Assembly (NCBI GenBank): GCA_030141605.1
Contig: JAQGDQ010000011.1
Coordinates: forward strand, 1,445,319 to 1,509,318
Source: Tubiluchus corallicola
Taxonomy: Eukaryota; Animalia; Priapulida
Direction: 5' to 3'
DNA: 64,000 nt
Shown here: positions 10,801-63,325 of the stretch, piece after piece
Numbering within the stretch: the stretch's first letter is position 1
Layout of the letters: every line of letters begins with the position of its first letter
Notes under the pieces: model-generated
Databases searched by the model: none
What the model saw: only the letters and a program-made list of their open reading frames with translations
What the model was told of the DNA's origin: nothing
Made by a program: the position numbers and the translations under genes

Positions 10801-13800
10801 CGCGATGACGAGCTACAACTGATGTCAATCCGTACTTATCCTGTAATCATCATAAATTCATAATCATTATAATACAAAATTAAAAAGAAACAACAAGCTT
10901 TCAAAAAACTTTTTTGCAACATACAACTAAATAATACGGAAGAATTTTTTTATTTATTAGGCACAAAAATATAGGCACTTATATATTAGTAAAAAGTAGA
11001 CAGTAAGATTAAATGGCCATGATAACTACGAAGGTTGTGCCTACGACTGTGTGCCAGGGTTGACATACAACTAATGTATAAAAATGAAAAAAATTAAGTT
11101 TGCTATAACTATCTATGGAACTTAAATGAAAACAGTATGATTTTTCACATCCTAGCCTATTTTAAAGTGTGATGAAAAGTATACATTTTAACACCTATAA
11201 TAATGCTAAAGCATTTCTGATAATTAAATAATAGGTTTAAATCTTAATTAACGGTGAGCGAGCTCAACTAGTGGTGATATCACAAATGAACATAATTCTC
11301 AACAGCTTAAATATTTCATGAGCATGTTGCACGTGTTCGCGAAAGAGAAAATTGACTACACTGCTACTGTACAACATTCAGTGTGATACACAAAAATTCA
11401 GCAAATTTTCAAATTCAAATTAAATCAAATTTAAAATTTGCTCAGACAAGAGATCTCAAACATGTGCAGTTCGATAGCACCTGTTTTTTGTGCAATCATT
11501 TGAAACATGCAGATGCTACTGCTCATCTAACTAGTGAATGGCGAAATTAATGTAACAGTGAAAATCTAGCTGCTAGGGTAGAGATTGTTTTGAGCTATAG
11601 TTTAAGATTGGGTCCAGTTTTCCTTTAAGTAATTTTGCACACTGAACGGAGTAAACAGCAACCTTTACCTGAATGCCATATTGCATTAGAGCTCTTCGTC
11701 TCAACGGTGTCTTCTTTTTTGTCAGTTCAGTAAGTTCAGCCAATGCCATTAACTGATAGTGTTCAATTAAAGTGTTAATCTGAAATTAATATCAAAACTG
11801 TACATCTCACCACCGTACAGCAGCAAGGGACCCATGTATAGGTCATTGCTCAACAGCAGCTGGGCACAAGCTGACATTTTTACAAATTATAACCAAAAAA
11901 GAGTGATAAAAAAGCTGTGGTTCAGAGTGTGGAAATGAATTCAGGAGTTTTGCATGGCTAACTATTTAGCAGCAGTTACAAAACATAATCGTTTCCAGAA
12001 ATATCCATACTTAGTACAATGAAGTCAAAAAGTAATATATTCATACTTTCATAAAGATAGTTTTCCAGCTAAGATTGATTGGGAACATGTATGCAAGCAG
12101 TGCTGCTCACTGATATCTATGGATCACAAGTTATTCACAAAAAATTCAATCAACACTTTTGTGATCAGTACCTGCTATATGCTGTAAAAGAACAGCTACA
12201 GTAATTTAAGGCACAAAAAAACACTGTTCATAAATACAGCTTAAAAAATTAGTTTCGAAATTTTGCGCTGCAGTAACACTGTATAAAATATGTCAATTTA
12301 AACTGCGTGATGACTGCTAGGTGCAGTATTTAACGGCAAGTCGGTAGAAACAAGTTCCGATAACATTGCGTAAAGTTTGAGAAAATAATCAAGTATTTCT
12401 AGCACATGCTTCACTAATTAAGTAAAAGTTTTAATTACTTCATATTGTGAATAAGATCAATAATATGTTTCTGGTGAATCAGTGGTGCACACTGGAATAG
12501 TGATGCGGTGCCGTTTTACCAGGTGGTGCAAACATTTAAAACTATTAAGAATTTTTTCCCCAATTACATGTCTTTCAAACAGGTAAGCGTAATGCTCACT
12601 AGTATAACTTTGAATGGAAAGATCTTTGGGATATATTCTAAAATATCCCTTTATTTCCCTTTCAGCTTAGCATAGCAGAAATTTCGTAATAAATTTCCAT
12701 CACATTTTATGGGAACGATTTGAATTATTTTTATGAAATGACCTGCTTATTTTACTAAAAACTGACTGTTTGATTGGGTATTTTACCACTCATAAATGTT
12801 TATTTGGCAATCAAGAATCGACTTTGCCAAGCAATAACAGAAAATGTAGAAAATTTCTACTCCAAATCTGAAAGGTAAATTTCTACTGCTAATGTACTGC
12901 AAAATCCATATTTGCTCTTACCCACTGCAGTTACTGACGTGTATTCTAATGTAAAAAATGCAAATTGAATTCACTCCAACCCTGAAACCACACAATGTAG
13001 TGTACTTGTGTTTTTGAAGACGTGGGAAAGTGAAAAGGAACTTACACGTTTGGCATCTGGGTTCTCAGGTTCGTGCCAACCTCCGGATGCTGCAAAAGAT
13101 GCATATAAATAGTAAGAAATATGAAAAAAGTTACCTCTTATTTTTAATATGCATGTGCTGCATAATATAAATCAAGTGCGTGCATCACAAAAGTCGGATT
13201 CTATAAATAAGGATCAAGGATTGAAGAAGGCAGGTATTTTTTACACAATCAAATTCTAACTATTTAATCCACAACAAATGATAGAAACGGCCTTGAAGAG
13301 TAGTATTTTACAATCCAAATAAGAAGTCACAGGCTCATTTCAAAAACTAATGAAAAGAGATTAAAAGTTTCCATAAACTTCTAGCATCACAGCTGAACCA
13401 CACGAAGTTTAAAGATTTTAAATAGAAAACTACAAAAATAGCTATCATCTCATCTTTCATTATTTTTAAATCCAAAAACGAATCTGTGTGGGCAGATCCA
13501 ACCTTTTAATCCTGTATATGTTTTAAGCCTGAGTTCTTAGAGTAATTTTATTATATTATCATGGCAACAATTTTGAATTGTTGAATATTTTGAATATAAC
13601 AATTTGAACAACATCGCAACAACGCCATAATATCGAATTTAGGAAACTATTACTGAATTATCTCATCACGTAACTTGACCTTAATTTTGTACTTTTTAGT
13701 CTATATTGCAACAATTTTTCAGATTAATATACATCTTTATAAATTATAAAAAATATCTGTTTTATCTTTATAAATTATAAAAAATATTTGTTTTATGTAT

Positions 13801-19678: not shown

Positions 19679-22600
19679 AAGAAAAAGAGAATGAGAGGGG
19701 TCCATACTGCTTTTGTATGTTTAAAGCACATATGTGACTAATCAATTTCGTTAAAATCTTCATACATTGTGATAACTCCTCCAGTGAATGATTGCACTTG
19801 TCATTCCTTGCAAAGTCTTCTGGAGATAATAACAACTGTGAAGGCCTGCAACCATAATGTGAAAATGTAACTTTGGATCCATAAACATGCAGCCTTAATG
19901 CCTAACAAACAAAGGTGTTTGTAAATGCAATATACAGACCTATATACAGTCTGTCCAAACAAGAATTCGCACTCGTTCAAAAAAATAAAAAAATTCAGCC
20001 TAATAAACTTGCAAACATTTGCATAATATCCCTGGCAGTCTTGGCAGTAGCAGTAGTCATTATAGTTGTTGTTATTGTTATGTTGTTGGTGTCATGAAGT
20101 AGATTTAGTTAAATTTAAACTGAATTTGGCATAATTATGAACTCCATGTGGACAAATAGTCAGAGTGTATATCATAGCATGTGACTTATATTGCTATAGA
20201 ATTGATTTTTCCTTTCCTTTCTGTATTTACAGGCCTGTAGCCAAAATATCAGAAAATAATCAGATTTAAATCTTTTAACTGTGGGAGTCCGGTTTTAAGC
20301 AAATTCCTTTGTGTAGAAATTGGCTTACCACAAAATTGGGATTATTTGTCCACTTGATTATGCATTTGTGATACTAAAAAACCAATCAGGTACAGACTTT
20401 TGTGAAAAATTGACAAATTATAGTAGCAAGGAATGCAAGGATCAATATTGTGTTAACTATAAAAAATACGTTTGTTAAATATATCCTTATACATGTAACT
20501 TTTAGCCCTATAGAAAAATGCATGATGTCATTTGTAGATTTAAATTCCACATTTGCACAAAGAGAGATTGCTAGCCTACATTGAACAATACTTCAAAAGT
20601 GTGTCACTAAATGGCTATTTTTGCCTAATAATCGAACACTGTTTTTCTATTGTACAACATGGCGCCCATTGTTTGCCATACAACAGACCATAGAAGTTGT
20701 ATAAGAACTTGGTACCCTTTGTTTGCCATACAACAGACCACAGATTTGTATGAGAACTTGGCACCCACCGTTTGCTACACAACAGACCACAGAATTTGCA
20801 TTACAACTTGGCACCCTTTGTTTGCCATACAACAGACCACAGATTTGTATGAGAACTTGGCACCCACCGTTTGCTACACAACAGACCACAGAATTTGCAT
20901 TACAACTTGGAGCCCATTGTTTACTATACAACAGATTATAGAATTTGTATTAGAAGTTGGCACCCATTGTTTGCCATACAACAGACCATAGAATTTGCAT
21001 TAGCATGTGGCGTGCATTGTGGCTTTCCTTTTTGACTAGTAATCTCTCTTTATGCACTAGTGGCATTTAAATCTACGGACTTAATCATATTTGTAATTGT
21101 ACAATCTTGTAACACAATAATAGTTTTAGTTCTATTTTGGCTTCGATTATAATTATTGAACATTTATTAACGAAAAACAGACTTTTAGGTGCTTGTAAAG
21201 CTGCTTATGGCACTTGAATTATGATGCAAAACAGTTACAATTCTATTATGATCCAACATTAACATCACAATTACACACGTAAATCCTTTGACTGATAGAC
21301 ATGCATATAACTGCTACATTTTGTTTATCTTCTATACAGCATTTGCACAGTGCAGTGTAAAGCAAGGACTATTTCTCTGAGGTGCCTTATATGGAAGGTA
21401 TAAGGTTTTCTGCTACAAAATCTTACTTCCTTATAAAGCTACTTTGTAAGGTCCTCACCTTTCACTTAAATCCATATCTTGACCACATTTGGCACAACAA
21501 CTGTTCTTTTCTGCACATGAGCCGCATACAATATGGTAAGCAAACTTTACTTTCTTCTGTTGACATTTTGTACTGAAAGACAAAATAAGTTTTTTTCTGA
21601 TTTCTGTTATTTGTAAAAAAGCCACAGATTTTATGTGTGTTTAGAATGTAACCAGAATGATGATGATTGCTAGAAAATACGAAAACTGCCTAGTATACAC
21701 CATTTTTTTTAATAAAATTAAGATACACGTATTTGAATGCAAGAGAAACACATACATATACGTACATACAGCCTGCTATAGTATGGGTGATATTATGCCT
21801 CTTTAACCATAGCTATGCTATCATTAGGAAAATTAAACTCAAGTGGCAATGTAGGACTTTATTACATTGAAATAAGCATCTCTTGAAATCTAGTGTCTAT
21901 AATAAAATAAAGCATACTTTGTATTTTTAGTTTCTACTGACAAAACTGGCTTCAATCAGAGAGGAAATGGCAATAAAATGAAACATATAAACAATCTGCA
22001 TTAATTTTTTTATGAAAAGAATTTCAGCTTTTATCAGATTGGGCAGAAAGACAATGTCTACAGTCATTTAGTTTTGAAGCTTCTGCTGTATTTTATAATG
22101 CCATACTTGACCATACTTATACTGCCATACTATCGTTCTATAGCAGTGGCGGCTCGTGTATAGGAATAATAATATAATATAATAATATTATAATTCAATA
22201 TAATAATCTTTTTTCTTTAGTTCTTTCTTTATACTTGTGCACCGGAGCACGCGAGGGAAGTACAATTTGCTTCACAGCCCAAGCAACGTGGTCTGAGATA
22301 AGATGCTGTACTTTAGGTAGAAAGAGTACTGTCGCTTACTGCAGTATGTGTTGTCAGTCGTCACATGCTTAAAAGCGTGTATTGGCATATTCTTGAACTG
22401 CGACAATTTAGGCTATTCATGAGAAAACAATATTTTTTGCTTATGAGTTTATCAAGGTTATGTTTAAATTAGTCTGTTTGTTTAAAATTACAATTACAGC
22501 AGTATAATTACATATGTTTATTTCGTTCTACACAGTATTAAAACAATGGCTAAAATTTTTTTAAATTTTACAGCACCCCCACTAATTTTAACTACGAGCC

Positions 22601-27779: not shown

Positions 27780-28352
27780 TTCATGGGGATCATTTTGATA
27801 CCAAGTTTGTCACTGTATGTTATTTCTAAGCTGAGATATTCCACATTGAAGTTGAGGTGCAGGCTGCATACTGAAAAACATAATTTTGAGAAAATCACCG
27901 TTAAAGTTTGTCATTGTTTTATGCCGCATTTCTATAAAGCACTTAGTAACTGCAGGAACTGGTGGTTGCTATCGACGTTTGTAACAGCACATTGAAGCTA
28001 CACTTAAATCCTGTGGATGGCTCGTCCAAACGAATATCTGAGCTTGGCAGAAAAGAACGCAAGTAAAATGACTGCTTCCACAGGCTACTATTGGAGTTTT
28101 AAAAATACGAGTTTTTGAGAAATATAGTGCTAGTTTTTAGTAAGAGAAGTGGGTAAGGACTAAGGTGTTATAAAACCAAATTTTTAGTAATTTCTAAACA
28201 ATCTCTTGGCATTTTTATGCTAGAACGCAAGAGTTCAATATATTTAGAGTTTGTTTTTGTAAAATAAAAAACAAAAAAGAAAAGATATTTTATCCAATTT
28301 TTGCTGTATGCATTCTATTTTGTAGCATCACAGTTCATAATGCAGTTTTAAC
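27780..28352 (+). repeat. Interspersed TTAA-ended repeat, same family as 1-440
   Basis: Colinear similarity to window positions 1-440. Confidence 0.65.
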
Positions 28353-28764
28353 TGTGCCGACTGGACTATAACTGGATGGACTGGACTGGACTGTGCCGAC
28401 TGTAACTGGACGGTTTTGGTCTGCATACACAGAATTATTAGTGGATTTACGGCACAACGAAATAGTAATAGACATTTCTTGCATTAAATTTTTGGAAAGT
28501 TACTTAGTGCCTTTTTTGTCATAATTGATCTTTCATGTAGCACTTGGTACGCGCAAAGTGGTCGGTGCGTTGTTGTTGCAGACGAATTACGGGTTAATAC
28601 AGAACACACATAAGAAAACCAAACAAAATATTGACAAAGTTTATTCTTGTTTATTATACCATAGAATTACTCGCAATGCAACATATACAAAAGATCAAGA
28701 TTACCCACAATATTAAGATCCATATTTATACTGCGACGACTGATTACAACATTTTTGCGTCCAG

Positions 28765-31700
28765 ATGACTTATGTTGACCCAGTGGAACTGACTACAATT
28801 TTGGATAAAGAATTTACGTTCTTTCACACGTGTAGATGGATCGCTGACGCTTATGTTGTGGTAAACTTGTTTCAAACAAGTTGTTTGTGATTAAGGAAAT
28901 TGATTATTAGTATAATTGGCAGTTATTTATTTATAATTATACCTGATATTTCGACTGTAAGCGTAATTCATACTGAGTTGTGGTTATGTTGCTGTCTCTA
29001 AAGTGGCATAAATGCAACTTGCAGTTGCCGATGTATTTTTCTTTTTATGCTGCTATTCGTTTTGTGTTTTTTCTGCAGGCCCGCAGGGTGGAAACCACAT
29101 CCGTACATTACATAAACGCGCGTTACTTAAGCCCTGCCTTCATTTACTTTTATAGTCCTATGCTGTTCGATTTATGAAATTTTATATTATAATGGTTTAT
29201 GTATAATTATTCACTTGTTTTCAAATTGTTTTTGTATGTTTAATTATTGAATTTTTATTCTTTATTCAGGAGTTCTACGTGCAAGATTTTTGGCATAAGT
29301 TGCCATCTTGCTGGCAACGATCTTTGGAAAATGTTGAACCCTGGCAACTGGCAGAGTTGTTGTGTGATGGGAATCAGAAGTGGTAATGAATTAAATATGT
29401 CACAAAAACTGAGTGACGTCTCCACTGTGGGAGTGATGTTAGTCTACCCATTAACGAAAAATGCTACTCAGTGGTCACTATACTGATACAATATGTAATT
29501 TTGTAAAATCTATCCACGAAGTTTTTACCTAGGTATAAGATAATATAATATAAGATAATATTTATTTACACAATAGAATTACAAACAAATAATAAATAAA
29601 CTTATAAAAAATAAACACTTTTATTATAACCAACACAGTAACAGAGTTTTCAGTTCAAGATGATAATGTTAGAGCTGACTTCAACTGAGAAGCTCAGTTT
29701 GAGTAGAGTTAAAGTTGATGGAAGTAACTAATGTGGTAGAGGGAGGACTGATACAATCTAAGTGCTGTCACACTTTTACGCAAAACTCTTTATGGCCATT
29801 GCTAACAACTTTGCCTTGCTACTTTACATATTTTAGCATTTTTTTATTTCAGCTTTTTAATCACTTCATTCAAGTAAATAATTTGAAAATATTAAGTCTC
29901 TGGGATTGCCTAGAATCTTGCATCAATCAGATGATATATATGCATTTGGCATATTTAATGGTTTTGGCAGTAACACATACATCAAAAATTCAAAATCTTT
30001 TAAATTTTTTTATGCAGCTTTTTGAATATGAAATATTACTGCGTTCACGGTCAGTTTGGTCAAAAGCATCGATAATGTCATGAATATGGTAAGTGGTAAG
30101 ACAAACAGGAAATTCTGTTGATCTGCTTTAGGCCCATGATGTGGCTATTTAGTCACTGTGACTCATTATTCGACTAACCTGCTTAAACTATCTACATTTG
30201 TTATTACAGGTCGCGAGTATGGCCGCTGTCATTGTTAGCATACAGAGTAGCTGCTGCTGTTCTCTCTTTGCCCCGAATGCCTGACGAGAACACTTTTTTG
30301 TCCGATGACAGCGAGATGTCCAATTTCGATTCATTAGAAGATTTTCAGAAAGACAAGCATCAAAGAACTCTTTGCGCAAAGGCTGTGGCTGGCTTGCGCT
30401 ATCATCGCGTAAAGTCAAAAAAACTTCACGAGATCCACAGACTGGCTTATGTGAGTTTGTGACTGTCTGTTCAATTAATGAATCAGATAACAGCTAATTT
30501 TTAATTTTTCAGTTTTCATTTGTTTGTCTATGTTTCTGTATTTGTTTTCATTTGTTTGTCTATGATTCTGCATCTAATTAGTGTGCATCCAACAGTTCGT
30601 GGTTGATGAAGTCAAATCTGAGGTGAACAAAAACTGTTGATCAAATAAGAATAGTTGTGATTTCTGGGTGAATTTTAAAGGAAAGGCCAAATTTTCTGGA
30701 AAGTCAGGCTTATTTGAATACTTGCGAGAAATGTTAGAAGGATTTAGTAGTAAAAGTGTTATAAATGACTGATGTAATTAATAAAATCTCTTTAAAGTCA
30801 CAATCACTTCGTGCTTGGGCGCTCCCATTTTCAATGCCCATTCTTCTTTCTATGACGTCATTCATCCTGAAGAAAAGTAGCACACTGTCAATCTTTCATC
30901 AAAAGTATAATAAGTTTTTATAGAATAATTAGATGGTTATTTTGTAATGTTTTGCATGAACATTAGGTAAACTGCAGAAATTTGAATTAGTTTAAGTAAT
31001 ATGTACTTACGGAAAGCCACAATGCACTCACAAAAAGTCATGAAGTCTCCCAGTTACGTCATAATTTTCAAGTTAATGGCAGCAACCATCATGCCTGAAA
31101 ATTTCTATTCAGAGATAGTATATTTTAAATTTTTCTAGACAATTTTTTGCAAATTTCTCTTTTATATTTTAGTGATAACAATAATGTAAACCCAACATAC
31201 TGAGTGACTTCCTTTAAGGACATTATCACAAGATTCAGAAGAGTTTTTGTGAAGAATATAAATGCAGTCTTGATATTTTTCTGTCTATACTGAAAATTGC
31301 TTTCAATAATTTCTCTCAAAGGCACATTTTGAAGTCTATTTAATACTGTCACTTGTGGTACTACTGGAACATAGATGATTATCAAGGATAATCCTCGGAG
31401 GTGAATTGTAAAATGGCAGAAGATGCATCGGCCATCTTCCTGTGCGAGTAAATCCTCTCTCAATCACCGAAATAGTGAGAGGGTGAAGAACTCTGTTAGA
31501 AGCAATTTGCCAGCCATTCACCAAGGTATTTACTGACTAGGAGCAGTGTTTCTTAACTTTAATTGCAAATATTATGACCTTTTTTCTAGGCTCAGCAATT
31601 CCACTATAGTCATTATTGTAGGTTGTACATTCACTTGCTTCCAAAGTCGACTGTAGCAAGGTGATAGACGTCGGGTGCGGTCAAGGTCACCTCTCCAGAT

Positions 31701-34700: not shown

Positions 34701-37700
34701 GAGTCAACCTGAAATTGAACACACAACCACCCGAGTGCAAAACCAAACCATTACCTCTGAACTAAACCATCTCGTAAAATGATGCAATAATGATCAGTTA
34801 CTTTCTGTTTAAGGGTAAGTTTAGTTTGCTTGCATCCTCTCATATGTATATATATATATATAGCTTGAGAGTGTTGATGTTTAAGCATTATTTTAATTTT
34901 TGTTTCTGATGCGTTATTTTTTATGTAGTTGCAAAGGCTTGATCACACTGAAAATTGGTTGTGTTAGATGCAAGTAATACCTCAAGTAAACAGCGAATAC
35001 GTCAAAGGAAGTTATGATGTCAAATTGAAGTCACAGAGCTTTCCTATGTAGTTAATAGTTTTAATACAATGTCTATACAGGTGGCTTCAAGTTGTCAAAA
35101 GCGTCCAACAGCATATTTACATATATAAGTACATTTTTGTGAATATACAGGGTGGACCCAAAATAGTAAGCCCTTTAAAATGCAATAGTGACTAGAATTT
35201 TTATTCAATTTGTATACAAACTTAACAGGATAAACTATAAACATGTTAGCACTTTACCAAGATATATTCTTTAAGGCAGACAACATGACTTTTCATGTAC
35301 TACCCCATTTTCAAGTCCTATAAAAAGTTTCAACACAATTAATACGGCAAAAGCATTTCTGGTAATTAAATAATAGATTAAAAAACTTAATTAAAGGCAG
35401 GCGAACCAAACTATTGATGACATCACAAACTAACGTAATTTTCAACAGCAAAAATATTCCACGAGCGTGTTTCACATGTTTGTGAAAACGAAAATTAAAG
35501 TACATTACTACTGTAAGATATTTGGTGTGTTGTACAAAAACTAGGCAAGTTTCAAGATAAAAATTCGAATTTCAAATTTACCGCTGTGCTCACGCATGAG
35601 CTGTCAAACGTGTGCAGTTTGTCGCAAACAAATATATATCTGAACTGAGATGTACAGCGCTTGTTTTTTGTGCAGTGCATTTCCGAATGTAGGCGCTAGT
35701 GCCCGTCTACCTGGCGAATGGCAAAATGCATGTAACAGTGAAGAACTAGTGGCGAAATTGCGTTTGTGTGATAATAGTTCTTTCACGTAAGCCTTTTTTG
35801 ATAAAATAGTATGCTTTCTTTCAACAGTTTAAAGACTAGATTATTTTGACGTACAGTTTAAGATTGGGTCCAGTTTTGCTTTAAGTTCTACTTTCAAGAC
35901 ATTCATATTCATATTAATTATTTTAATCACACGTGAAACATTCAAGCCTTTTTCCAATTTTTAAGCCCAATTTGAGATGCAATTTTTGCATTTAGGTAAT
36001 TGTCAATTAATTTATCAAACTGTAAATGCTGTCTGCTTGGTCACATTCAATGAAACCAGCTAGCTAACAGAGTGTTAGGCAGACGTAGTTTATTTGCCAA
36101 ATAGCATATTAAACCGTATCACTCTTTTCGAAATTTAATTTGCTGAAAAGTGAAGAACTTTAGCATTTGACTTGAGTATGATTCATTCAGTGGTAAAAAT
36201 TATTTAAAAAATGTAAATGTGATCAAAAATATTTATGAGTCTTAGACACACCTGAAGTTATGCTTAGGTGCCACAGTAGAAAAAGAACATGTAAACACAA
36301 GTTTACAGAATTCCACAGTTAAGAAGCCTGGGGGGAAAAGGGGGTTTACAAGTAAATGTTCTACATCTAGAAATATCCAAGGTGAAACTCAGCTCCAGGT
36401 AAAAAAAACTTGCTGATGATATATTTACTATGATTTTATTAAATTGGTTCTGTATCTTCAGCCAAATAGAGTAGGCAAATCATCATTTTGTCTGCATTTA
36501 TATAGGAAATTCATCAAAGTTAAAACTCCACTGCTACCGGGCTGCACTGGAGTGGCTGCTTAAAAACTGCGGAAATCTGAGTCAAGATGCCCGTATTTCT
36601 ACCAGAACAATCAAACGTATAGAAGATGCATCTTTTACAAAGTACGTTGCATGCATTCCTGTTTGTGACATTGCAAATAGTAAGTTTCAACTAGTTTTAG
36701 TAACTTTTGATATTAACTTACTTGTTAGTGTCAGAGGAACTCAACCAATATCGGTTCATTTCTGGATGTTGTTGTTGTTCTTGTTGTTGAGGTGATGACT
36801 TTTTGAAAAAAGCCCAAGGCTTTGTCAATTCGCAATGGATTGCCATGAAACTACGCGCGAATATACTAGAGCAAATTCCACATCCACTGATAGAGTCGAA
36901 TTTTTGTTCCGCCATTTTAAATTCAAGATGGCAGCTATTGTTGAAAAAAGACTAAGGCTCTGCCAATTCGCGAGGGATTGTCTTGAAACTTACCTAGAAT
37001 ATTGCAGAAGGTATTCCGCATCACCGGCAGAGCCACATTTTTGATTTGCCACTTTGAATTCAGGATCACAACACTAATATCATTCTAGAGAAAAGTAGAT
37101 GTTCCATCAGTTCACAACAGTCATGAATTTGTATTTGAATCTGAAAACTTCAACTTGTTTTAGGTCCAAGATATTTTAATCATCTTATTAGTAGTGATAA
37201 CAACATTATTTGGGTTATTTGCGTTTAGCACTGATGAACGTTTAAATAAATAAATTGATTTGTAAAGTGAAACATGCTTGTGACTTGAAAAGTAAGATAT
37301 TCCAGCATATTTGTGTTGACTTTGCAGTGAGCTGCCACAAGTTTCTCACCTTCCTAGTTCCAGATTTACCAGTTGCGTGTCAGTCAGCACCCTTTCCACA
37401 TGCACATGTATGAATCTTATTTTTGAGAATTTAAGAGCCCCTTACCTTCAATGCTACAAGGTGTTTTATTACTGTGATTATTACAAATATGTAAGAGATT
37501 CAGGTTCACAGTTCTAGTTTTCTGTGTTTCAGGTATGCAGCAGTGGCACTACAGCGACTTGGTTTTGAAGGCTGTATTTCTGAAGAAGAGCTACAGGCTG
37601 GGGAGAAATTCTGTGAACAAGAATGGAGAAAAGTGATGACATTTCACGTTCTCAGACTCATGCTGGCGCCTGTCATAGAGAGTATCGTACTAGTCGATCG

Positions 37701-40197
37701 GATGCTCTGGTTACGGGAAAGAGGTAAATGGAGACAACATTCTTAGCTGTATAGTATAGCCAAGTGCAGATGTTAGATAACACAAACTGGCTTTTAAAGA
37801 AGTGATTTTAAATGTTGGGTTTATTTTATTACTATCACTTAAAAGAAAAATGTAGCCAAGGAATTTGCAAAAAACAACTGTCTATAAAGCATAAAGTGAA
37901 TTTATACTACTGCTGTATAGAAATTTTCAGGCACTGTGGCAGCCTCCATTCACTAGAAAATTATTATGATGTAACTGGTGAGCTTGGAATTATCTAATTT
38001 TTGGCGACTTTTCGTAAATGTGTCGTGGCTTTCAGTAAGCGAGTGCTGCTTAAACGAATTTAAACTTCTGCAGCTTACCTAACGTGCATGCAGAAATATC
38101 ACAAAATTATCTAATTTTCTGTCAAAACTTATCATACTTTTGATGGAAATTGACAGTACACTGCTTTTCTTCATTGGTGGAAAAATGGGCTTTCAAAATG
38201 GAAGTGCCCAAGCGTGAAATGATCACATCATTAGAGGATTTTACTAATTACACATGGTGCTTATCACATTTTTATTACAAATTCCTTACATTTTCTCAAA
38301 CAATGAAATAAGCTTAACTTCCCTTTAACAAAACTTCTGGTTCTACAATGACTTGTGAAGTTCAAGTTCTACATTCATACAATGACTACAAGTTCTAGGA
38401 AAGCTTATAATATTACCTGTGTAATCACTACAGCTACTATGAACAAGTCCCACCAATATATTTTCATCAAAAAGCACGTAAGCAGAAATAATGTTTGTTT
38501 TTTGTAAAATAAATTTCAAAAACAAATGTGCTGCATTCCCAGTTAGTCAATCAATGTGGATGTAAATTTTGTGTTATCAGCACCAGCGAAGCCACATACT
38601 ACATTGTATAGAGAGAACCTGTATTGATTTATTGACAGTTGATAATGCACTTTGTGACATTATCACCATTCCTTTTAGCAATTCACTTACCATTAACATA
38701 ATATAATGTAAGCAGTCGAATTGAAGAACTGGAATTCAAACTAGCTAATTTTTTAAATGACCTTGTATGCCACTTTTTGTGAAGAAGATAGTTAGTTAGT
38801 TTACAGACACACACACAACAGGAAGCGATTAGAACATATTGACCTCTCTGCACACGCCTTGTCCAGTGTGTCTGCTGTGATGAATGGCCCTAGTCATTAA
38901 CCCTTTAACTATGAAAAGTGGCACAGTGCCGCCTATGTTTTTTTTGTGAGGGACAGAAGGCGGTAGACTGGCACCCAAGCCCAGCACTAAGCGCAGTCAC
39001 TCGGGTCTGTTTGTTTTGCTACTACGGCCATGCAAAAATATTGTAGGAAAGTTTGACAGCCGTGGGATTGGGGTTGCTTTGCAACAAATAACGTTAGCCA
39101 GCCAATCAGCATCTGAAGCTAGGTGCATTCCAGGATACTGCGTGGTATGATACATTCTCACACAAAATCACTTGTTGATGGTTAGTGGCCTGTTTGTATA
39201 AAATGTTTGCACAATATTGATTAGTATTATGACTTCTGTGAAAATTGGTTTCTAAATATAAGTATGTTGTTATCTGTTAAGGTTTGCACGTGTGTGGGCG
39301 CTTGAGCGCACGCATGTGTGCATCAGTACAAATTAAACTAATATCCAATATTGGTGTTTATTAACAGATGACTATTTGTTTATTTACAAGATTCTGTTTA
39401 AGTAATACACAACAAAAAGTTATTGTCAAATATGCAAAATGCAATACGGCCTAGTTAACAAGCAACTACGTACTGAAAGGTTAATGATATCAATAACTAA
39501 CCAAAGAGGTTTAAAAGAATCTTCACGTCAAATGAAAGTTACATAACATTGAGGCTGAGGAGTAACTCGATGCGCAACCACTTGGTTGGATTTCCTCTCT
39601 GCCATTCAGAAACATTATGATTCTGAATGTGAACCCCACTGAGGGAGGCTGTATTCATATATGAATGTGACTGAGACGACTTTATCAGTTCTGTGTCTCA
39701 TCTTAGAGGGTTAGCCTTGATAATGAATCAGGTCCAGTCCTGCTTCAACTACTCATTACAATATTAAAACCTGCATATAAATAGTTAACCTTCAGACATA
39801 CACACACAGCAGGAAGCTATTAATACATGTCAATCTCTCCTCTGGTACACATGGCTTATATAGTGTGCAGTGAGACGAATAACCCCAACCACAATATTAC
39901 AATAATGTCCCAGTGAGGTGTAACAGTGGCTCCAAATGTCTGGTTTCATCGAAAGCCACACACAATGGTAACGTTTGTGAAGCGCACATTGTACCGCATG
40001 ACCCACAAAGTGTGTTACATGCAGGACCAAGCAGTATGTACACGTTTTTTACTTTTTTGAGCAATCTGTTGTGATGGATGAAATGAATTTTTTTTTGTTT
40101 TCTAGGCTTTAGTTGCAAAATAAGGCCGCTGTTTGATCCACTTGTTTCTCCGAGAAACTTGGTGCTGATAGCTAGGAAATCTCAAGATGGACAATGA
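28765..40197 (+). CDS. METTL25B: Methyltransferase-like 25B / RRNAD1, 10 coding exons, ~479 aa
   Basis: Exons (+): 28765-28860, 29270-29382, 30210-30450, 31622-31782, 32736-32865, 34029-34165, 34493-34635, 36506-36641, 37533-37723, 40106-40197; in phase, 1440 nt. Motifs: DAYVVEFY..WHKLPSCW, VWPLSLLA, KKLHEIHRL, VIDVGCGQGHLSRFL, VGLHTCGDLG, GCCYMK, ACHAKEQY, HCYRAALE, LAPVIESIVLVDR, LFDPLVSPRNLVLIA. Confidence 0.94.
30674..31218 (+). mobile_element. Kolobok-like (TTAAAG...CTTTAA) MITE; inverted copy at ~37792-38328
   Basis: The reverse complement of 37792-38328 aligns colinearly over ~550 bp; termini ttaaagg...cctttaa. Confidence 0.7.
32006..32470. mobile_element. Fold-back element with ~170-215 bp inverted arms, each carrying a tRNA-like (B-box) segment
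   Basis: gtgattgccagaatttttattaaccattgc is mirrored by gcaatggttaataaaaattctggcaatcac; ggttcaaacccc (-) and agttcaaatcct (+); ~75-bp spacer. Confidence 0.85.
33125..33405. mobile_element. Harbinger-like MITE, related copy at ~45652-45916
   Basis: Shared blocks gtaactcgcaag, cttctctattcactg, gcagttcacact.g.ga.tttac and aaactc.ct.gtctgaa; internally palindromic. Confidence 0.6.
35271..35884 (+). mobile_element. TTAA-ended (Kolobok-like) element, same family as 11081-11629
   Basis: Colinear similarity and a near-identical right end. Confidence 0.7.
36722..37150 (+). mobile_element. Helentron/HINE-like element: (TTG)n microsatellite plus two ~135-bp internal tandem core repeats
   Basis: A ttgttgttg tract is followed by ttgaaaaaag..c.aaggct.tg.caattcgc..ggattg.c.tgaaact... 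twice (from 36803 and 36941). Confidence 0.55.
37792..38328 (-). mobile_element. Kolobok-like MITE, inverted relative to 30674-31218
   Basis: Reverse-complement similarity to 30674-31218. Confidence 0.7.
38901..39480. mobile_element. piggyBac-like MITE
   Basis: ttaa-ccctttaacta ... gtactgaaagg-ttaa: TTAA TSD with CC(C)TTT termini. Confidence 0.6.
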
Positions 40198-40348: not shown

Positions 40349-43300
40349 CTAGGAGGTGCTCGTTTGTTCGTCGTAATTCTCTGCCAGCGTTTCAAGAAAA
40401 GCCAGTGCTTCTTGAAAGTCATCTGATTCTAGTCCGGCTTCAATGTACTTGTGAAATTTGTGGATGTTGAATCGTCTACCAGCTTTGCTTAACTCTTTGA
40501 GCATGTGTGAGCAGTCAGATGCGGAACTGTGGCATGTCATTACGGGCACACTGTCCACACCTGGAATAATAACACAGTGACTGAATGAACATGTAGATTA
40601 TTAAATTTTGGCAATCATCGCATCAGAAAGGTGGAACTGAGCTTGGATTTAACACCAGAGACCTTGGTGCTGAACTGAAATACACAGAACCTTTTTCATA
40701 TCCAGTCAGAATCCAAATTTTTTCACATTTTTCTTTGTCACGTTTGGTTGAAGAAATGTTCTATCATTAACAGATATTCTTCTAATGAAGGTGATAACGA
40801 ATAATTTAAATATGTAAACAGTTTACTGGAAAGTAGCAGATGAAGCAGATATCATGTGTTTTTATTATGCCTCTCACTCAAACACATTTTGGAAATATAA
40901 AAATATTACTTTCCTGATTTGGAAAGGATTTTACATTACGTCACCAATGATTTCATATTTAAACCTGAATGTCATCAATAAGGGTGAGCATCGAACGTTC
41001 GAGTTCAAATGTTCGAATCGAGTTTTTTAAGTTCGGATTCGATTAAATTATAGATTTGAATAATTCAGTACTTCAGCCACACACGTTCTTTATCATCAAA
41101 ATGTTTGAAACAGCATGCAGTTGTCACAATTTAGCTGCAGTTTCTATGCAAAATTTTTAACTTTCTAATGGTGGTTTTAGTGCAGGACAAAATCAAGTAA
41201 TATGCATGATCCTTGTAAGGCCAATTCTTACTAGTGGTTCGAAAAAACTTGTTGGAAAATCTTTCAAATTCGAATTTCATTTGGATTTGAAATACTGAAA
41301 TTTGGTTCGATTCAAATTTGAAAGTCACAATTTCGATTCGATTTCGATTTCTGGTAGCGAATGCTCACCCCTAGTCATCACACAAATGAAAGAGCCAGCT
41401 AACTCGACTCTAGGCTCCACGGGGTCCCGTATTGGTTCTTGTAAATTAGTGAGTCTCTGTGTTGTTTGGAGAGTTTTAGGTTTCTCATATTGTGTTCTCT
41501 CTTGTGGTTGGGGAAAATGCAGAATTGCCTAAAATGTGTATTAATCTTCTGACACTTATTACAATGGTTTGTTTTCCCAGTATGTAGACATTGTTTGGTG
41601 CTAAAATAATTGTTTGCTGGTTGTTGTGATCTTTGCCGGAAATCTGATATATAAGGTAATATGTTTATGTTTTCTTTATAGTTTTCTCCACATCAGATTA
41701 GTGTATTTCTACTTATATTTTGACAGTTTGAATTTCACTCTTGTGATCGTCTTGATTACTAGCATCATAATTGTACTAATTATTGATTTCTGCTTGGTTT
41801 ATAACATTGAAAATGACAGTTGCTGTCGAAACGATTGTCTGCGCTAATAAACATGTTAAAACCTGAATGTGCCCATACTAATTTATGTTATAAAAAAGCT
41901 GATAATATTACTTCTTCTTGTGAGGTTAGCACACTTTAACTAAAGAATAGTGATTCTCTGCTAGAGTATATAGGTTTTCTAGAGCGCCGTCTGTGATATT
42001 GCATCATTTGTCGCCACTGTGTAAAACTTACTATTCTACGTGTTGATTAGCAATCACCAAAAGTATAGTAGAAACTGGCATTGCTCTTACAGTCGATCAC
42101 AGTCATTTTTGGACGCAAGGAATTTAGACATCAAAATTAGAAGAATTTAATAAAAAGATAGCGCTGTCTGGTTAGGCTCCTTTTAATAAAAGCCATACCA
42201 ATAGATGAACGATAATACAAAATGGCATGCTAATACGAAATGCTGTTTGACCACACGTCGCCATTGCCAGTTCACACTCTAGTTCTAGGGCTTCACACCT
42301 TGAAAAACCTGAACTGAACTTTAAATGTACTGATATTTTTGGCTAAAGTTTACAATTCCTCACATACAGGAAATTAGTTGACGAAGCAGGTTAGGGTTAC
42401 ATTTAGTGTTGAAGTTATGGTTACGGTTATTTAAATTGTGTGGAAATTATAAACTCCTTTCGTATTTGTCTATCGAACATAAGCCGCACCCAAATCAGCA
42501 ACACTCGTTTGTTGCATTTCCCAAGTTGTGGATCATTAAATCAGTAAATGGCTTCATTTCACATAGTGGTTTCATTAGACGTAAGTGAATAATGCCATTT
42601 ACCCTGCTCGCTTATCATTCACAGGTTGCACAGTGTTAACAGATATTGTCTACTGTTATTTTTATAATGGCATATTGCTGCATTAAAGCATAAGAAAATG
42701 CTCTTCATAAATCGTCTTGAAATTTTATACCATGTACATACTGTCTATTGAGTACAAAGCTTGTGTGTGCAGTAATGCTGTATAAAACTCGTAAATTTAA
42801 ACTCTCGTGATGACAGTTAGGTGCAGCCAATATAACAGTAAGTCGTATGAAACAAGTTTAGAAAACATTGTGTAAAGTTTGAAGAATAATCAGAGGATTC
42901 ATAGCATACTCTTCTCTAACTAGGCAAAAGTATAAATTACTTATATTGTCAATAAGATATAATGTATTTTTTGTGAATCAGTGGTGCACACTGGGAAGGT
43001 GAGTCAGTGACATTTTACCAGTTGGTGCAAACATTTTGAATTATTAAGAATTTTCTTTTGCAATTACAAAGTCTTTCTAACAGATAAGCATAATGCTAAG
43101 TAATATAACTTTATATTGAAACTATTTTGGGATGTACTTTAAAATTTCCTTCTCGTTTAATGAATTACAGCTTTTATTAAGTAAATTACTCACTGAGTTC
43201 CACTAAAATAGATAATCAATGCATTACACTTTTGCACCTGTTAATGTAGATGCGCTCTTTGTTGAAATCAAGCCATCGTGTGAAACATCCGGCGTGAATA

Positions 43301-57352: not shown

Positions 57353-58665
57353 GTACTCCTGGTCAGTAGTAGCACTTCACTAACTTTCTTGAATTGTCTA
57401 CATTTCAATTTCTGCAAAAAATAACACGTGTTAAAAACAAAAAATAGCAAAAGTATTATACATTATACTGTTTTCATTTGTGTTTCTTAAAAACAGTGAA
57501 AGAAGATGTGAAAATAGTTTTTGCTAGAAAGATCTTGCAGTGCTCGCACACAGAGGGCTCGGGCTGGTTGCATCCACATGTCTGCACCTCGGGGATGTAT
57601 TTTTAGGGTCCCATGCGACTTTATAGCCTCACATAAGTGAGCATTTCAGCGATTCTTATAGTTTATGAATTACTATACATGAGTGATTGCGTCAGTACAT
57701 CACCTTTAAAATTAACTCGTGCTATTAAAGAAGCTTATGAAAATTTGTTTTCTTAAACTACAACATTTCTGTGAAATTTTCTGGAATCATTGTATTGTGA
57801 TAATCTGAATCATTGATATTTAGCATATGCATATTTTGACTGTACCCTGTTAAAAACAGTGTTAAATAATTCAAGCTGCAGCTGTATAATCACTTATAGA
57901 TACGTAACAATCAGTGCAGTGAAAGCAGCATTAGCAGACTAAAAGCCAGACTTGACAAAGGCAGACCTGCTGCTAGCAGCTAAAGCGAAACGGTTGACAA
58001 TGCAATGTGTTCATAATAATCTATAGTATATAATTCATAATAATTATTATATTTATAAAATAGTACATACTATAAAGTATTTATAATATATTAATAATAT
58101 ACTTTATATAGTTTATAATAATCTATAGTACGTTTTTGCTTATAAGGCTGAAATGACTAGCAGCAAATGTGGACTAGACATAGACATAGACTAGAAAACG
58201 CACCAGCGTATTTTATATCAAAAGTACTGGAACGTTTTGCATTTATGGTGGTTTACAATGCAAAGAGTACAAACATAAATCAAACAGCTTGCTGAATTAT
58301 TTTAGCACTTAACAAGTTTTAAATTGTTTGAGTAAATCTAAGATATATATATATATATTGTATAACTCGTTTGTTCACTCATAAAAGAACTATTATACCA
58401 TTGATCTTGGTACACACTTTCTAGATCTGTGATTATACAGCAACAGTTCTTCTGCTCTAAGTTTTTGCTCACATGTTTTTAAGCAACATCAGAAATCTTA
58501 TGTTTAAGAGTAAATCTAATTCACCGATCTGACCTGTTGGGAGCCGAGTGGACCACTGCGCCAAGTAGACCACTTTGCGATTGCGATTGCGATACTCGAC
58601 TCTCTCCACCTATCCGAGGCGGGCACCTTTATAGGGTGCAAAGTCTCTTCTTTAACGCTGATCTT

Positions 58666-61600
58666 TTATTTGTCTTTTCCAAGTTTAATGTCTTTATTTG
58701 TCTTTATCCTGTATTCCATACATTCGTTCACTAGATTTCTAATTTCTAACAATCCTTCCTTTTCACTGTTCATTAATACTTCTGAGTTCAAAATTTTTTT
58801 CCATTCTCCATATCTGTAACATCTAAGCATATGTTCAGTAGTGTCATCATCTTCCTCACACACTGGGCATAATAACTGATCCTTAAACTCATTCTTGTAG
58901 TTCCCTTTAACTTTAATCATATTCAGTCTTATTTTCAATATATCTTTAACTTCTTCTGGCTTGCATGTGTCTATGTAATTTTGTCGTTTCCACTCGGTAT
59001 GCCTTAAAAATCTTAATTTAGTGCTGCTCCTGCATTTTTCTGCACATTCGCTCTTTATACAACGTTCAATCTTATTCTTTATTTCTTTCTTCCATTCAGA
59101 CTTTTTCATGACCTTCACCCTTTCTTTATTAGCATCTATGGTATATATTTTTGCAGTCTCAAATACTTCATTATACCATGACCTTTTGTGTATACTGTTT
59201 ATTTGCATTTCAAGTATGTCTGATGCTAATCTCTTTGGTTTACTAATCAATAAATTCCGATAGAACATCAATCTCCTATAGTTTACTTTATGTTTTAGAG
59301 GCCATATGCCTATTTCAGTTACTAATCCCCAGTATGGCGTTGATTCACTAAGGTTAAATAATGTTTTTAAAGCATTTGCTTGAATCATTTCTAATTTCTC
59401 CCAATCAGTTGTTGTCAAATTTGACCATGTCTCAGAACTATTTAGCACTGCACTCACTGAAAGAAGCTCGTACAGCATTAGTTTTACCCCTATTGAGCAA
59501 TCTCCCACTTTCAGCTCACCTCCTATTGTATTGATGTAACTAATTATCATTTTGTTTTTCCAAACATTATTTCATAACTACCTTTTGTATTTATCCAATC
59601 TCCCAAATATTGGTATTCCTCTACTTCCTTAACCTCTCCGTTCCTTAGTGACTCACATAATTCTGGGATCCTTTTCTTTCGTGTCATTTTAGTTCTCATA
59701 TATTGTGTTTTCTGTATATTGAATGATAATCTTTTGGTTCCTTCAATTTCTTGACAGTTTTTAATCATCTGCTTGATTATAGTTTCTTGTCCTATTCCGA
59801 CAATATCGTCAATGAATAATAACATACCCACATGTATATTTCTGCCCATTACAGTCCCTGTTGTCACCATCTCATTAATCCGGTTTATTGCAGCACAACA
59901 TAGTAATGGTCCCAACACTGTTCCCTGTCGGACTATTTCATTTATTTCTATCTGGTCTGTTTTTCCCAATGGTGTTTCTATAACTATTTCTGCAATTTCA
60001 TTCAGTTTATATATCATAAATATTTCTCCTGGTGATATGCCCATCCTCCATAATTCTGTCAATGCATCTTTCAACCACAACTTATCAAAACACTTTTCTA
60101 TGTCACAAAAAATTATGTACACTTCATTTTTATAAAACCTGTTATACTCTAACATTGCCCTCAAGGTGTACAGATGGTCATAGACCCCTCTGTTTTTTCT
60201 TCCGCCACATTGATGTACTCCTATGTTTTCTTCAAATTTAACTATTATTCTATTTTTGATCACTTTTTCCATTAGTTTACTGAAAATATTTGTTATGAAC
60301 AGCCCTCGTCTATTTTTCATCTCTTTCTTGTCGCCTTTTCCCTTATAAATTGAATTTATTTTCATTTGGGCCCATCGGTATTTTCTTTTGCTTCATTATT
60401 TCATTCAGCATTGCTACTATACTATCAATAAATCCCTTCCCTGCTTGTTTGATCATTTCATTCTTCCATCCTTGCATGTCTGGAGCCTTTTTATTTTTTA
60501 GTGATCGAACTGCTTCATTCACTTCACTGTTAGTAATTTCTTTTACTTCCTCCTCACTTGCCATTTGTTCAACATGTTTGAAAATTTGTTCAACCCTTGA
60601 TTCTATCATTTGCTCATATTCATCCTCTGTCTGAGTAGGAGTTCTTCATAATATTTTTTAAAAATCAACTTAATTTTTCCTGGATCCTCTTGGATCTCAC
60701 CTTGTTTATCTCTCATTGCTATAGCTTCTTCCATTTTAGGTTTATCGATGCCCTTTTTGAATTCCCAAAACAACTGCTGGTTAAGTTTTCCATTTACTGT
60801 AATTGTCCTAACAGTTTTATTTATTCTATTTATTTGTTCCTTCCTTTGCACAACCCTCATCATGTTTTCTATTAGTTCAATTTTTATTTTTATCATTCTT
60901 TTCCTTTCCGAGTCTTCTTCATCGCTCATTTCACGTTTTAACTTACGTCTTTCTTTATTTAGCTTCCTTGACATTTTACTTCCATATTTTTGTTTCCTTT
61001 TTCCTTTTACTGAAAGGCACCTGTCTCTTACTACTGCAGCTTGATTTATCCAGCCATCATATTTGCTCTGAATTGATCTGTTACTGCTCCATACTTTACT
61101 AAATATTTGATCATCAGTTTCTTTTTTGTATCTGTTCATTTTATTTTTATTAGACACTACTAATTTTTTTATCTCATCACTTTTATCTCTTTTCATTTTA
61201 CTAATCTCAACCCAATCAAATTCACTATATATTGTGTTATGGTCTGTATATACAATTTTTTTCTCGCCACTACTAGTCACTCTGTACACTCCATACAGTT
61301 TTTGTTCATCAACAAGTGTGAACCTATGTGCATTTACATCATTTGCACTTATTATTATATAATCAATAACAGATTTTTTCCCAGCTTCTTCTCTTGTCCA
61401 AATTCCTGAGCATTCTTCAGTTGCATTTAATATTACTAGTTTTTCTTTTTTAACCAGATTTAGTAACATTTTCCCTGCCCAAGTTATTTCATCACTATTA
61501 CCTTCGATAATATTTCCTACTTTTGCATTGAAGTCCCCTATAAGCAAGCACTTCTGGTTTTCATTTTTTGCTTTTTGTACTTGCTTACGTATTTGTTCAT

Positions 61601-62060
61601 ACATTTTTTTCATTTCTTCTTTATCTGTCCTACTTTCCTGAGGTGCATACAATAATCCTACTCTCAATTTTACTTTTGAATTATCCATTACAACCCATAA
61701 TTGTTCACCTACTTCATTATACTGATCAGCTTTTATTGTTACATTTTTTAAGTCATTTTTAATTGCCAATAATATCCCCCCTCCGTACTTATTTCTATTC
61801 AGTTGGAACACTTTGTAACCCTCAATTTGCACCAATTCTTCTTCCGCCAAATGAGTTTCAACAATTCCTATTACACTAGGCTTTTTTTCCCTTATCACTC
61901 CATACAATGACTCTAGCTTATTATTTAGCCCTCGACAATTTGTATATACTACATTAAAATTTTTAAACTTCTTTTTCTTTTTCTGAGATCTTTTCACTCT
62001 TACTTTTTTTTCTAATTCCACAGTTTTTCTTTTATTGCATTGATTTCTCTCACTAAAAAA
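58666..62060 (-). pseudogene. LINE ORF2: apurinic-like endonuclease + reverse transcriptase + C-terminal CCHC finger, 3 frameshifts
   Basis: EN motifs YTNCRGL, IVETHL, GGGIL, IGDFNAK, SVIDYII, TDHN; RT motifs KKAPDMQGW, RGLFITN, CDIEKCFDK, VRQGTVLGP, FIDD, YLG; CPVC..TEHMLRC. Split into ORFs 60606-62021, 60343-60609, 59547-60365, 58666-59550. Confidence 0.92.
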
Positions 62061-63325
62061 TTAATCTGCTCAACTAAACTTTCATTTTGTGTCTTTTGTT
62101 CATTTTTATTTGTTTCTAGAGTTGTCTGCTGTCCTTCTCGTTCTTGTGTTCGTAGGTATCTCTTTTCATCATCGTTAAAAAAATGTCTGTATCTGCACCT
62201 ACTACCATATTTGCATTCACCATCATACTTGTAATTCCAACACAAATTTGTCTTTTCCTTATCCTCCCCAGGTTTCAAATAATGTCTAAACCTACACTTG
62301 CTTTCAAATTTGCAATATTTATTCCTTCCAAAATAGGAACACAACTTTTGTTCATATTCTCCTTGTTTGGCTCTATGTGCACTTTCACTGAGCTCTTGAC
62401 ACTCCTTTTTTGTTTTGTAGTGTCTAAACTTGCACCTGTTTTCAAATTTACACCACACATTTTTTGCAACATATCTGCATAGTGGCGTTATCAGGCTCTG
62501 CCTCCTCTCTTTGACTCTGTACTTCTTTTCTGGAATCATCTTCCTTCTTATTAGATTCATTGTTTTCTTTTGCCTCTTCATATGTTCCTCCCATACCCAT
62601 TTTGCTCATCAACAATTCTTCATTTATCTTTTGTAGATCACTTATGTGCCTGTTTAGGCTATTTACTGTAGTTCTATTTTCCGCTGCCTCACTTATCAAT
62701 TTTTCTAGTTGTTGTCTGAGTTGCACTGCTTCTTCTTTCAACTTTTTTATTTCACTTTCATATTTCTTTCTCTTTAAGTCAAACTCAGCCAATTGATCCG
62801 TTTTCTTATTCACTTCTTGCCTCATTTTCTCTAAGTCATCTTTCAAATTTTCTACTTCTCTTTCTTTGCATTTCATTTCCTCCTCTAGATTTCCTAATTG
62901 TACTTCATTCAACAGCTGTGTATTTTTTTGCATTCCCATGCCTTCCTTTATCTTCTTGACTTCTTCTTCGCACTTATCGCAAAACCAGTGCAAAGTGTCA
63001 TTTATAACTAATGCACTTGCTGTGCCTACCGCTTTATACGCTTTCTTTGACATGCCAATGCACTCTCTGTGCAGCATTTCTCGCACCAGAAACAATACAT
63101 TCCATCTTCCACAATCTCCACTCTTTTTACACATTTACTGCACACTTCAGCCCCACTTATTTTCCTTTCCTTTCTTCCCTCTCCTTCATTCTCCTTTTGA
63201 GTTTTACTTTCTGACTTTTCTCCATTTTTCTCAGTTAAAGCTTCATCCACCACTTGCACAAAATCACACAATGCTCTTTCTATCCTGGTGCTCTGTATCA
63301 TTTCTTCATCACGCTCCACTTCCAT
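62012..63325 (-). pseudogene. LINE ORF1: PHD finger + coiled coil + three C-x8-C-x5-C-x3-H zinc fingers, 2 frameshifts
   Basis: The PHD finger is rebuilt across a 1-nt deletion (CSKC...CFWCEK[W]LHREC...WFCDKC). E/K-rich coiled coil. Fingers CRYVAKNVWCKFENRCKFRH, CSYFGRNKYCKFESKCRFRH, CWNYKYDGECKYGSRCRYRH. Confidence 0.85.

Follow-up and report, generated by a model that had tools for sequence, protein, structure and literature searches.

The ORF1/ORF2 locus

By the window we mean the whole 64-kb stretch of DNA analysed here. It carries a single LINE copy on the minus strand, from approximately 63,900 to 58,575, set in ORF-poor DNA of 34% GC; no second copy of this LINE was found within the 64-kb window. 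The element is an APE-type non-LTR retrotransposon (LINE), with an ORF2 that has an APE endonuclease followed by a reverse transcriptase. The copy is decayed and contains five frame breaks besides the ORF1/ORF2 junction. Its features, all on the minus strand, are the following:

62012..63325, minus strand: ORF1, about 437 codons, with a PHD-like finger, a coiled coil, three CCCH fingers and a short C-terminal helix
near 63074 and near 62488, minus strand: breaks of ORF1 in the window copy
62183..62482, minus strand: the three CCCH zinc fingers of ORF1 (Pfam zf-CCCH, E 3e-10, 3 stretches)
62061..62063, minus strand: ORF2-frame stop directly 5' of the heptamer, TAA (TAG in one variant contig)
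62054..62060, minus strand: slippery heptamer U_UUU_UUA in the -1 register, the first bases of the open ORF2 frame
62012..62060, minus strand: ORF1/ORF2 overlap of 49 nt, with ORF2 in the -1 frame
61968..62009, minus strand: basic (K/R-rich) motif in the ORF2 frame, 5' of the endonuclease and conserved in homologues
61240..61958, minus strand: APE-type endonuclease domain (Pfam Exo_endo_phos, E 4e-10), containing the first in-frame ATG at 61688
59600..60330, minus strand: reverse transcriptase domain (Pfam RVT_1, E 1e-22)
58666..62060, minus strand: ORF2 (endonuclease, reverse transcriptase, C-terminal Cys/His motif), with breaks in the window copy near 60641, 60374 and 59555
58575..58665, minus strand: short 3' UTR with a terminal (ATCGCA)n tail; many different flanks adjoin it at 58574-58581, and contig depth is highest here

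ORF1 aligns in three pieces, at 55-71% identity, with an intact homologue of 435 aa (P0176), whose match to the PHD finger is weak (E 0.005, below the cutoff). The depth of matching contigs follows a 5'-truncation pattern: summed over the X2 contigs it falls from approximately 140,000 at the 3' end to approximately 1,200 at the 5' side, depth not being equivalent to copy number.

Several other repeats lie in the window. Adjoining the LINE tail, 58535-58575 (minus strand) contains, on visual inspection, a tRNA A-box-like motif, and the loose ends of 11-13 contigs fall at 58535. A further repeat, for example a SINE, may begin in this segment, with no match in it by ARAGORN or Rfam. A tandem array of about seven copies of a 50-bp unit occupies 20653-21003. 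Four dispersed repeat pairs, 68-79% identical (12269-12648 and 42768-43149; 30698-31198 and 37812-38323; 11121-11569 and 35269-35749; 10-446 and 27912-28362), are probably other old mobile elements. Rfam gave no match in the window or in the related loci L001, L002 and L003 described below.

Architecture of the junction

The preliminary description of this DNA proposed that ORF2 opens at an HIV-type slippery site, and its reading of the frames is borne out in each particular. ORF1 ends as ATT AAT TTT TTA GTG ... TGG AAT TAG, with the U_UUU_UUA heptamer at 62060-62054 in the X_XXY_YYZ register of ORF1 and the ORF1 stop ending at 62012. The ORF2 frame is -1 relative to ORF1; a TAA at 62063-62061 precedes the heptamer, after which the frame is open for 484 codons through the endonuclease motifs YTNCRGL and IVETH. 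Its first ATG, at 61688, falls inside the endonuclease, at codon 125 from the heptamer and 108 codons past the ORF1 stop. As the description also had it, there is no evident stimulatory structure 3' of the heptamer (z +0.8 to +1.4; the junction window ranks 42nd of 47 by z).

The description was silent on the five other frame breaks and on how common such heptamers are. In any register, 35 occur in the 4,665 nt of the element; hence, the site in the window is by itself modestly unusual at most, since under synonymous resampling the overlap contains a heptamer with P 0.17 and is open with P 0.39. The case from the window copy alone is weak, and its weight comes from the family copies and the relatives. 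Neither of two other arrangements was found at the junction. For stop-start coupling of the SART1 type, no AUG overlaps or adjoins the ORF1 stop in the ORF2 frame, and none occurs before 61688. Pairing of the junction with the 3' end of the element ranks only 113th of 517 in the window family; pairing of this kind behind the heptamer ranks 2nd of 359 in L001 and 9th of 504 in L002, elements with undefined 3' ends, and was given no weight.

Copies of the family in public contigs

Contigs of the family were obtained from four public runs, which represent at most two samples, one of which may be the source of the window itself. Among the indels listed, frame-restoring ones are present in contigs at all five breaks (+1 at 63074, -1 at 62488, +7 at 60641, +5 at 60374 and +13 at 59555), and those listed include no common indel at the junction in contigs of the two samples. 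Since the five other breaks are restored and the junction is without a common indel, the -1 overlap is a trait of the family. Contigs identical to the window span the junction: in X1 these cover 62012-62200 at depth 351 and 61930-62041 at depth 158, and in X2 one covers 62018-62106 at depth 1231, the lowest-depth X2 contigs being near 150-185. Between the heptamer and the endonuclease (61930-62200), the indels listed are minor, none exceeding roughly a fifth of the local depth in any of the runs.

A second common variant differs at 62053 and 62048, but its heptamer is intact, its frame is unchanged and the ORF2 frame still has no ATG. Its new ATG is read in the ORF1 frame, which is true of both variant ATGs, at 62053 and at 62023. 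The heptamer is thus present in both common variants, in line with the retention expected by the preliminary description. Its view that the two ORFs are separate and that no AUG lies 5' of the endonuclease also holds for the family: the ORFs are not fused, and most copies have no AUG before the endonuclease. The family-wide layout, then, is an ORF2 that lacks a start codon and overlaps the end of ORF1 in the -1 frame.

Given 10 common substitutions in 247 nt, a 7-mer would remain untouched with P 0.75, and conservation of the heptamer within the species is for this reason not significant. One loose contig end has TAG instead of TAA 5' of an intact heptamer. In a divergent contig (depth 150, approximately single-copy; 20 differences and one gap over 169 nt), a change at 62056 breaks the heptamer, and the ORF2-frame GTG at 61997 has become ATG. 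For a more diverged subfamily (about 83% identity), the alignment to ORF1 covers 62081-62459, with the match ending at 62081.

Relatives of the window family

DNA was taken for 85 loci, comprising 80 of the 115 confirmed metagenome matches and five genome matches. By profile score the close group consists of L001-L006, five of which were placed in a quick endonuclease tree, where the split between the close group and 11 other elements, most with an early AUG, has SH-aLRT 100; we take these 11 to be RTE-like. The five matches in prokaryote genomes were rejected as relatives, being distant, and the two of them placed in the tree fall outside the clade. The contigs L081-L085, which carry non-LTR endonuclease genes and lie in five prokaryote assemblies, four of them MAGs, are likely eukaryotic contamination. 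Endonuclease and reverse transcriptase queries against viral contigs found no relative.

The two intact relatives, L002 and L003, are 33-37% identical to the window family. L002 has a 552-codon CCCH ORF1 frame and a 1,182-codon endonuclease-reverse transcriptase frame with a -1 overlap of 220 nt, in which A_AAU_UUU (A_AAT_TTT) directly follows the TGA and thereby forms codon 1 of the open frame; a Met is present at the start of its endonuclease. A long stem begins 5 nt 3' of this heptamer (z -2.8; rank 1 of 49 windows by both z and energy), in a 130-nt window that was selected after a duplex scan had pointed there. L003 likewise has an intact CCCH ORF1 and a -1 overlap, here of 277 nt, with A_AAA_AAC at codon 13 and the first Met inside the endonuclease. 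Its junction window ranks 11th of 19, with no clear stimulator; the strongest fold of L003 (z -4.3) is at L003:989-1120, in the CCCH-coding region about 200 nt upstream of the heptamer. CCCH-type fingers are found in ORF1 of L002, L003 and L004. The L001 contig begins within the overlap on A_AAA_AAC and has a -1 overlap of at least 177 nt with a Met in it; we infer that its other frame, a Q-rich tail of 58 codons, is ORF1. The contig of L005 starts downstream of the junction. In the decayed L004 a heptamer does not appear before codon 82, and the decayed L006 has none.

An early heptamer is accordingly seen in both intact relatives and, with the decayed loci included, in two of the four with a readable stop (P about 0.07, a hand binomial at 64/561). 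The rate used comes from other stops in the -1 frame, taken as controls from the window, L001, L002 and L003 ORFs; a heptamer follows directly in 4/561 cases and within 13 codons in 64/561, the 13-codon limit having been chosen after L003 was seen. The overlap stays open over 74 codons in L002 and 93 codons in L003, against longest upstream runs of 27 and 50 (synonymous resampling P 0.064 and 0.010, respectively); a heptamer somewhere in such long overlaps is itself expected (P 0.58 and 0.30). From the frame opening to the endonuclease the distance ranges from about 34 to 102 codons across the elements, and the register is still -1. The conservation in other elements anticipated by the preliminary description is thus found in part: the -1 overlap recurs in the intact relatives, as does a heptamer in register early in the open frame, but the heptamer differs.

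At the protein level, we collected 160 endonuclease homologues, 13 from one search and the best 150 of 3,852 from another, three being shared. The called start lies at least 9 residues before the endonuclease in 66, at its edge in 38 and inside it in 56. This scatter is partly artefactual, because the calls are automatic and the copies often damaged; the 66 with an upstream called start could use an AUG. Among 65 homologues with an N-terminal extension, K/R makes up 82-83% at two positions before the endonuclease, and no position has more than two internal Met; no called start offset is common to more than 5 of 71. The dipeptide FF, which is the -1 reading of U_UUU_UUN, occurs in two extensions, a count equalled in 94 of 5000 shuffles. 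Searches with ORF1 gave only P0176 and L003's own ORF1, and the ESM Atlas gave only generic CCCH clusters. None of the 15 listed members of the 194-member cluster of P0002 has a longer N-terminus.

Translation of ORF2

The junction is a real feature at the level of the family. It is also a good candidate case of -1 frameshifting, of which we found no report for this LINE clade in the literature consulted. We judge it probable that a -1 programmed frameshift at U_UUU_UUA gives an ORF1-ORF2 fusion, a reading drawn from the sequence: it is the simplest account of the kept -1 register, the long overlaps, open from a canonical heptamer or from close to one, the hairpin of L002 and the lack of a conserved start. 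Under this mechanism most ribosomes would stop 16 codons past the heptamer and release the ORF1 protein (approximately 437 aa), and a small share would slip on UUU-UUA to read ...QINF(L/F)SERNQ..., yielding a minor fusion of about 1,560 aa. In RNA folds modelled free of pseudoknots, a stimulatory structure 5-9 nt downstream is absent from the window family and L003 and present in L002, where the hairpin at 5 nt is predicted to stimulate the shift. In the window family the heptamer would have to act by itself or with a stimulator that this analysis did not detect, and a low rate is therefore to be expected; U_UUU_UUA alone shifts at a low rate. The literature consulted, available in part as full text, gave no figure for shifting at U_UUU_UUA without a stimulator. 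On a broader reading, with the odds if anything slightly against it, a widespread clade of CCCH-ORF1 LINEs would make a Gag-Pol-like fusion by a -1 shift and swap U_UUU_UUA, A_AAU_UUU and A_AAA_AAC as the slippery site, the window family doing so without an RNA stimulator and perhaps, speculatively, with aid from its own RNA-binding ORF1 protein.

The chief alternative, which we consider less likely but not negligible, is AUG-independent termination-reinitiation as proposed for L1, with the heptamers arising by chance in A/T-rich sequence. The restart site would perhaps be GTG 62021 or GTG 61997 here and any handy AUG in the relatives. It would draw on the two in-frame GTG codons within 15 nt of the ORF1 stop, on the single contig that pairs an ATG at 61997 with a broken heptamer, on the Met at the L002 endonuclease start, and on the short overlap without a stimulator in the window family; it has a precedent in SART1, and L1 is described as initiating ORF2 independently of an AUG. 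However, reinitiation leaves the 74- and 93-codon open overlaps of L002 and L003 unexplained, gives no reason for the frame to open at or near a heptamer, and does not account for a -1 register that is kept while the opening-to-endonuclease distance varies from about 34 to 102 codons. In L002, moreover, a restart at the Met would drop the conserved basic motif.

Joining or separation of the ORFs at the RNA level, through a spliced or shorter transcript or through polymerase slippage that adds a base on the T6 run, has little probability: the relatives have different heptamers and no common long homopolymer, T6 is a short run for slippage during transcription, and a spliced RNA would be copied back to DNA, yet no such joint is listed across the junction in the four runs. 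Least probable of all in our estimate is an origin by decay, in which a formerly single, fused ORF acquired an indel at the junction or the window copy lost an ORF2 ATG by mutation. The five other breaks of the window copy would suit such decay, as would two homologues (P0091 and P0023) with ORF1-like sequence in frame with the endonuclease. Against this, family contigs repair those five breaks and not the junction; the intact P0176, 71% identical over the terminal part of ORF1, ends on the same final residues (IHFL...KEKLWN); and P0091 has a truncated second CCCH finger, the kind of defect that a damaged copy would show. The contigs and P0176 together largely refute decay as the origin of the junction.

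Comparison with known systems

The proposed -1 frameshift in the window family resembles that of HIV-1 gag-pol and of retroviruses and LTR-retrotransposons generally, in that a structural ORF would be joined to an enzyme ORF. U_UUU_UUA is the HIV shift site, and A_AAA_AAC, as found in L001 and L003, is among the most shift-prone heptamers (PMC5009743). Unlike HIV-1, in which a long hairpin drives the shift (PMC2794165), the window element is a non-LTR element with an APE endonuclease, and no hairpin was found at its junction.

Human L1 and SART1 of Bombyx share with the window family a bicistronic LINE RNA and a low level of ORF2, which for the window family is a prediction. The ORFs of L1 are separated by a spacer, whereas those of the window family and its relatives overlap by 49-277 nt in the -1 frame; L1 ORF2 is translated independently of its AUG (PMC5009743). 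SART1 uses a UAAUG stop-start coupling with reinitiation (PMC10275272), in contrast to the window family, which has no AUG near the stop. The preliminary description had set the proposed shift against the characterised LINEs (L1, SART1), but left out TRE5-A and TRE3-A of Dictyostelium, for which a -1 shift has been stated. The latter resemble the window LINE in having overlapping ORFs and an ORF2 with APE, reverse transcriptase and zinc finger; they differ in their host group and in targeting tRNA genes. According to the legend of a review figure they need a -1 frameshift for ORF2, the two sources cited there being element descriptions by title and no heptamer being given in the text consulted (PMC5911963). 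Elsewhere, +1 shifting, reinitiation or readthrough has been suggested for Paramecium LINEs (PMC5405496), and Zorro3 requires its own ORF2 ATG (PMC1965478).

PHD-containing ORF1s are common in Jockey, CR1 and L2 elements (ORF1 types I-V; PMC4120745). The main text of that survey contains none of the words 'CCCH', 'frameshift' and 'overlap', and an ORF1 combining a PHD-like finger, a coiled coil and three CCCH fingers is absent from it. The text consulted of a review of recoding by Atkins mentions non-LTR elements once (HeT-A, TART, L1), without a -1 ORF1-ORF2 case (PMC5009743), and the portions consulted of two further papers (PMC5006619, PMC3592465) add nothing on -1 frameshifting in LINEs. 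In the literature covered, mostly the main text of open-access papers, we found no experimental -1 frameshift in an animal LINE and no clade of LINEs with a CCCH ORF1; such silence is weak evidence of novelty.

How ORF2 of LINEs is translated is a long-open question, the answers to date being reinitiation in L1 and SART1. If the frameshift is real, the enzyme would be tethered to the ORF1 protein in constant proportion, a possible explanation for its ability to locate its own RNA, and the inconsistent ORF2 starts that gene callers assign in these elements would be accounted for. The junctions, at 50-280 nt, are short enough for a direct reporter test, in which L002, with its heptamer, 5-nt spacer and hairpin, is the positive candidate.
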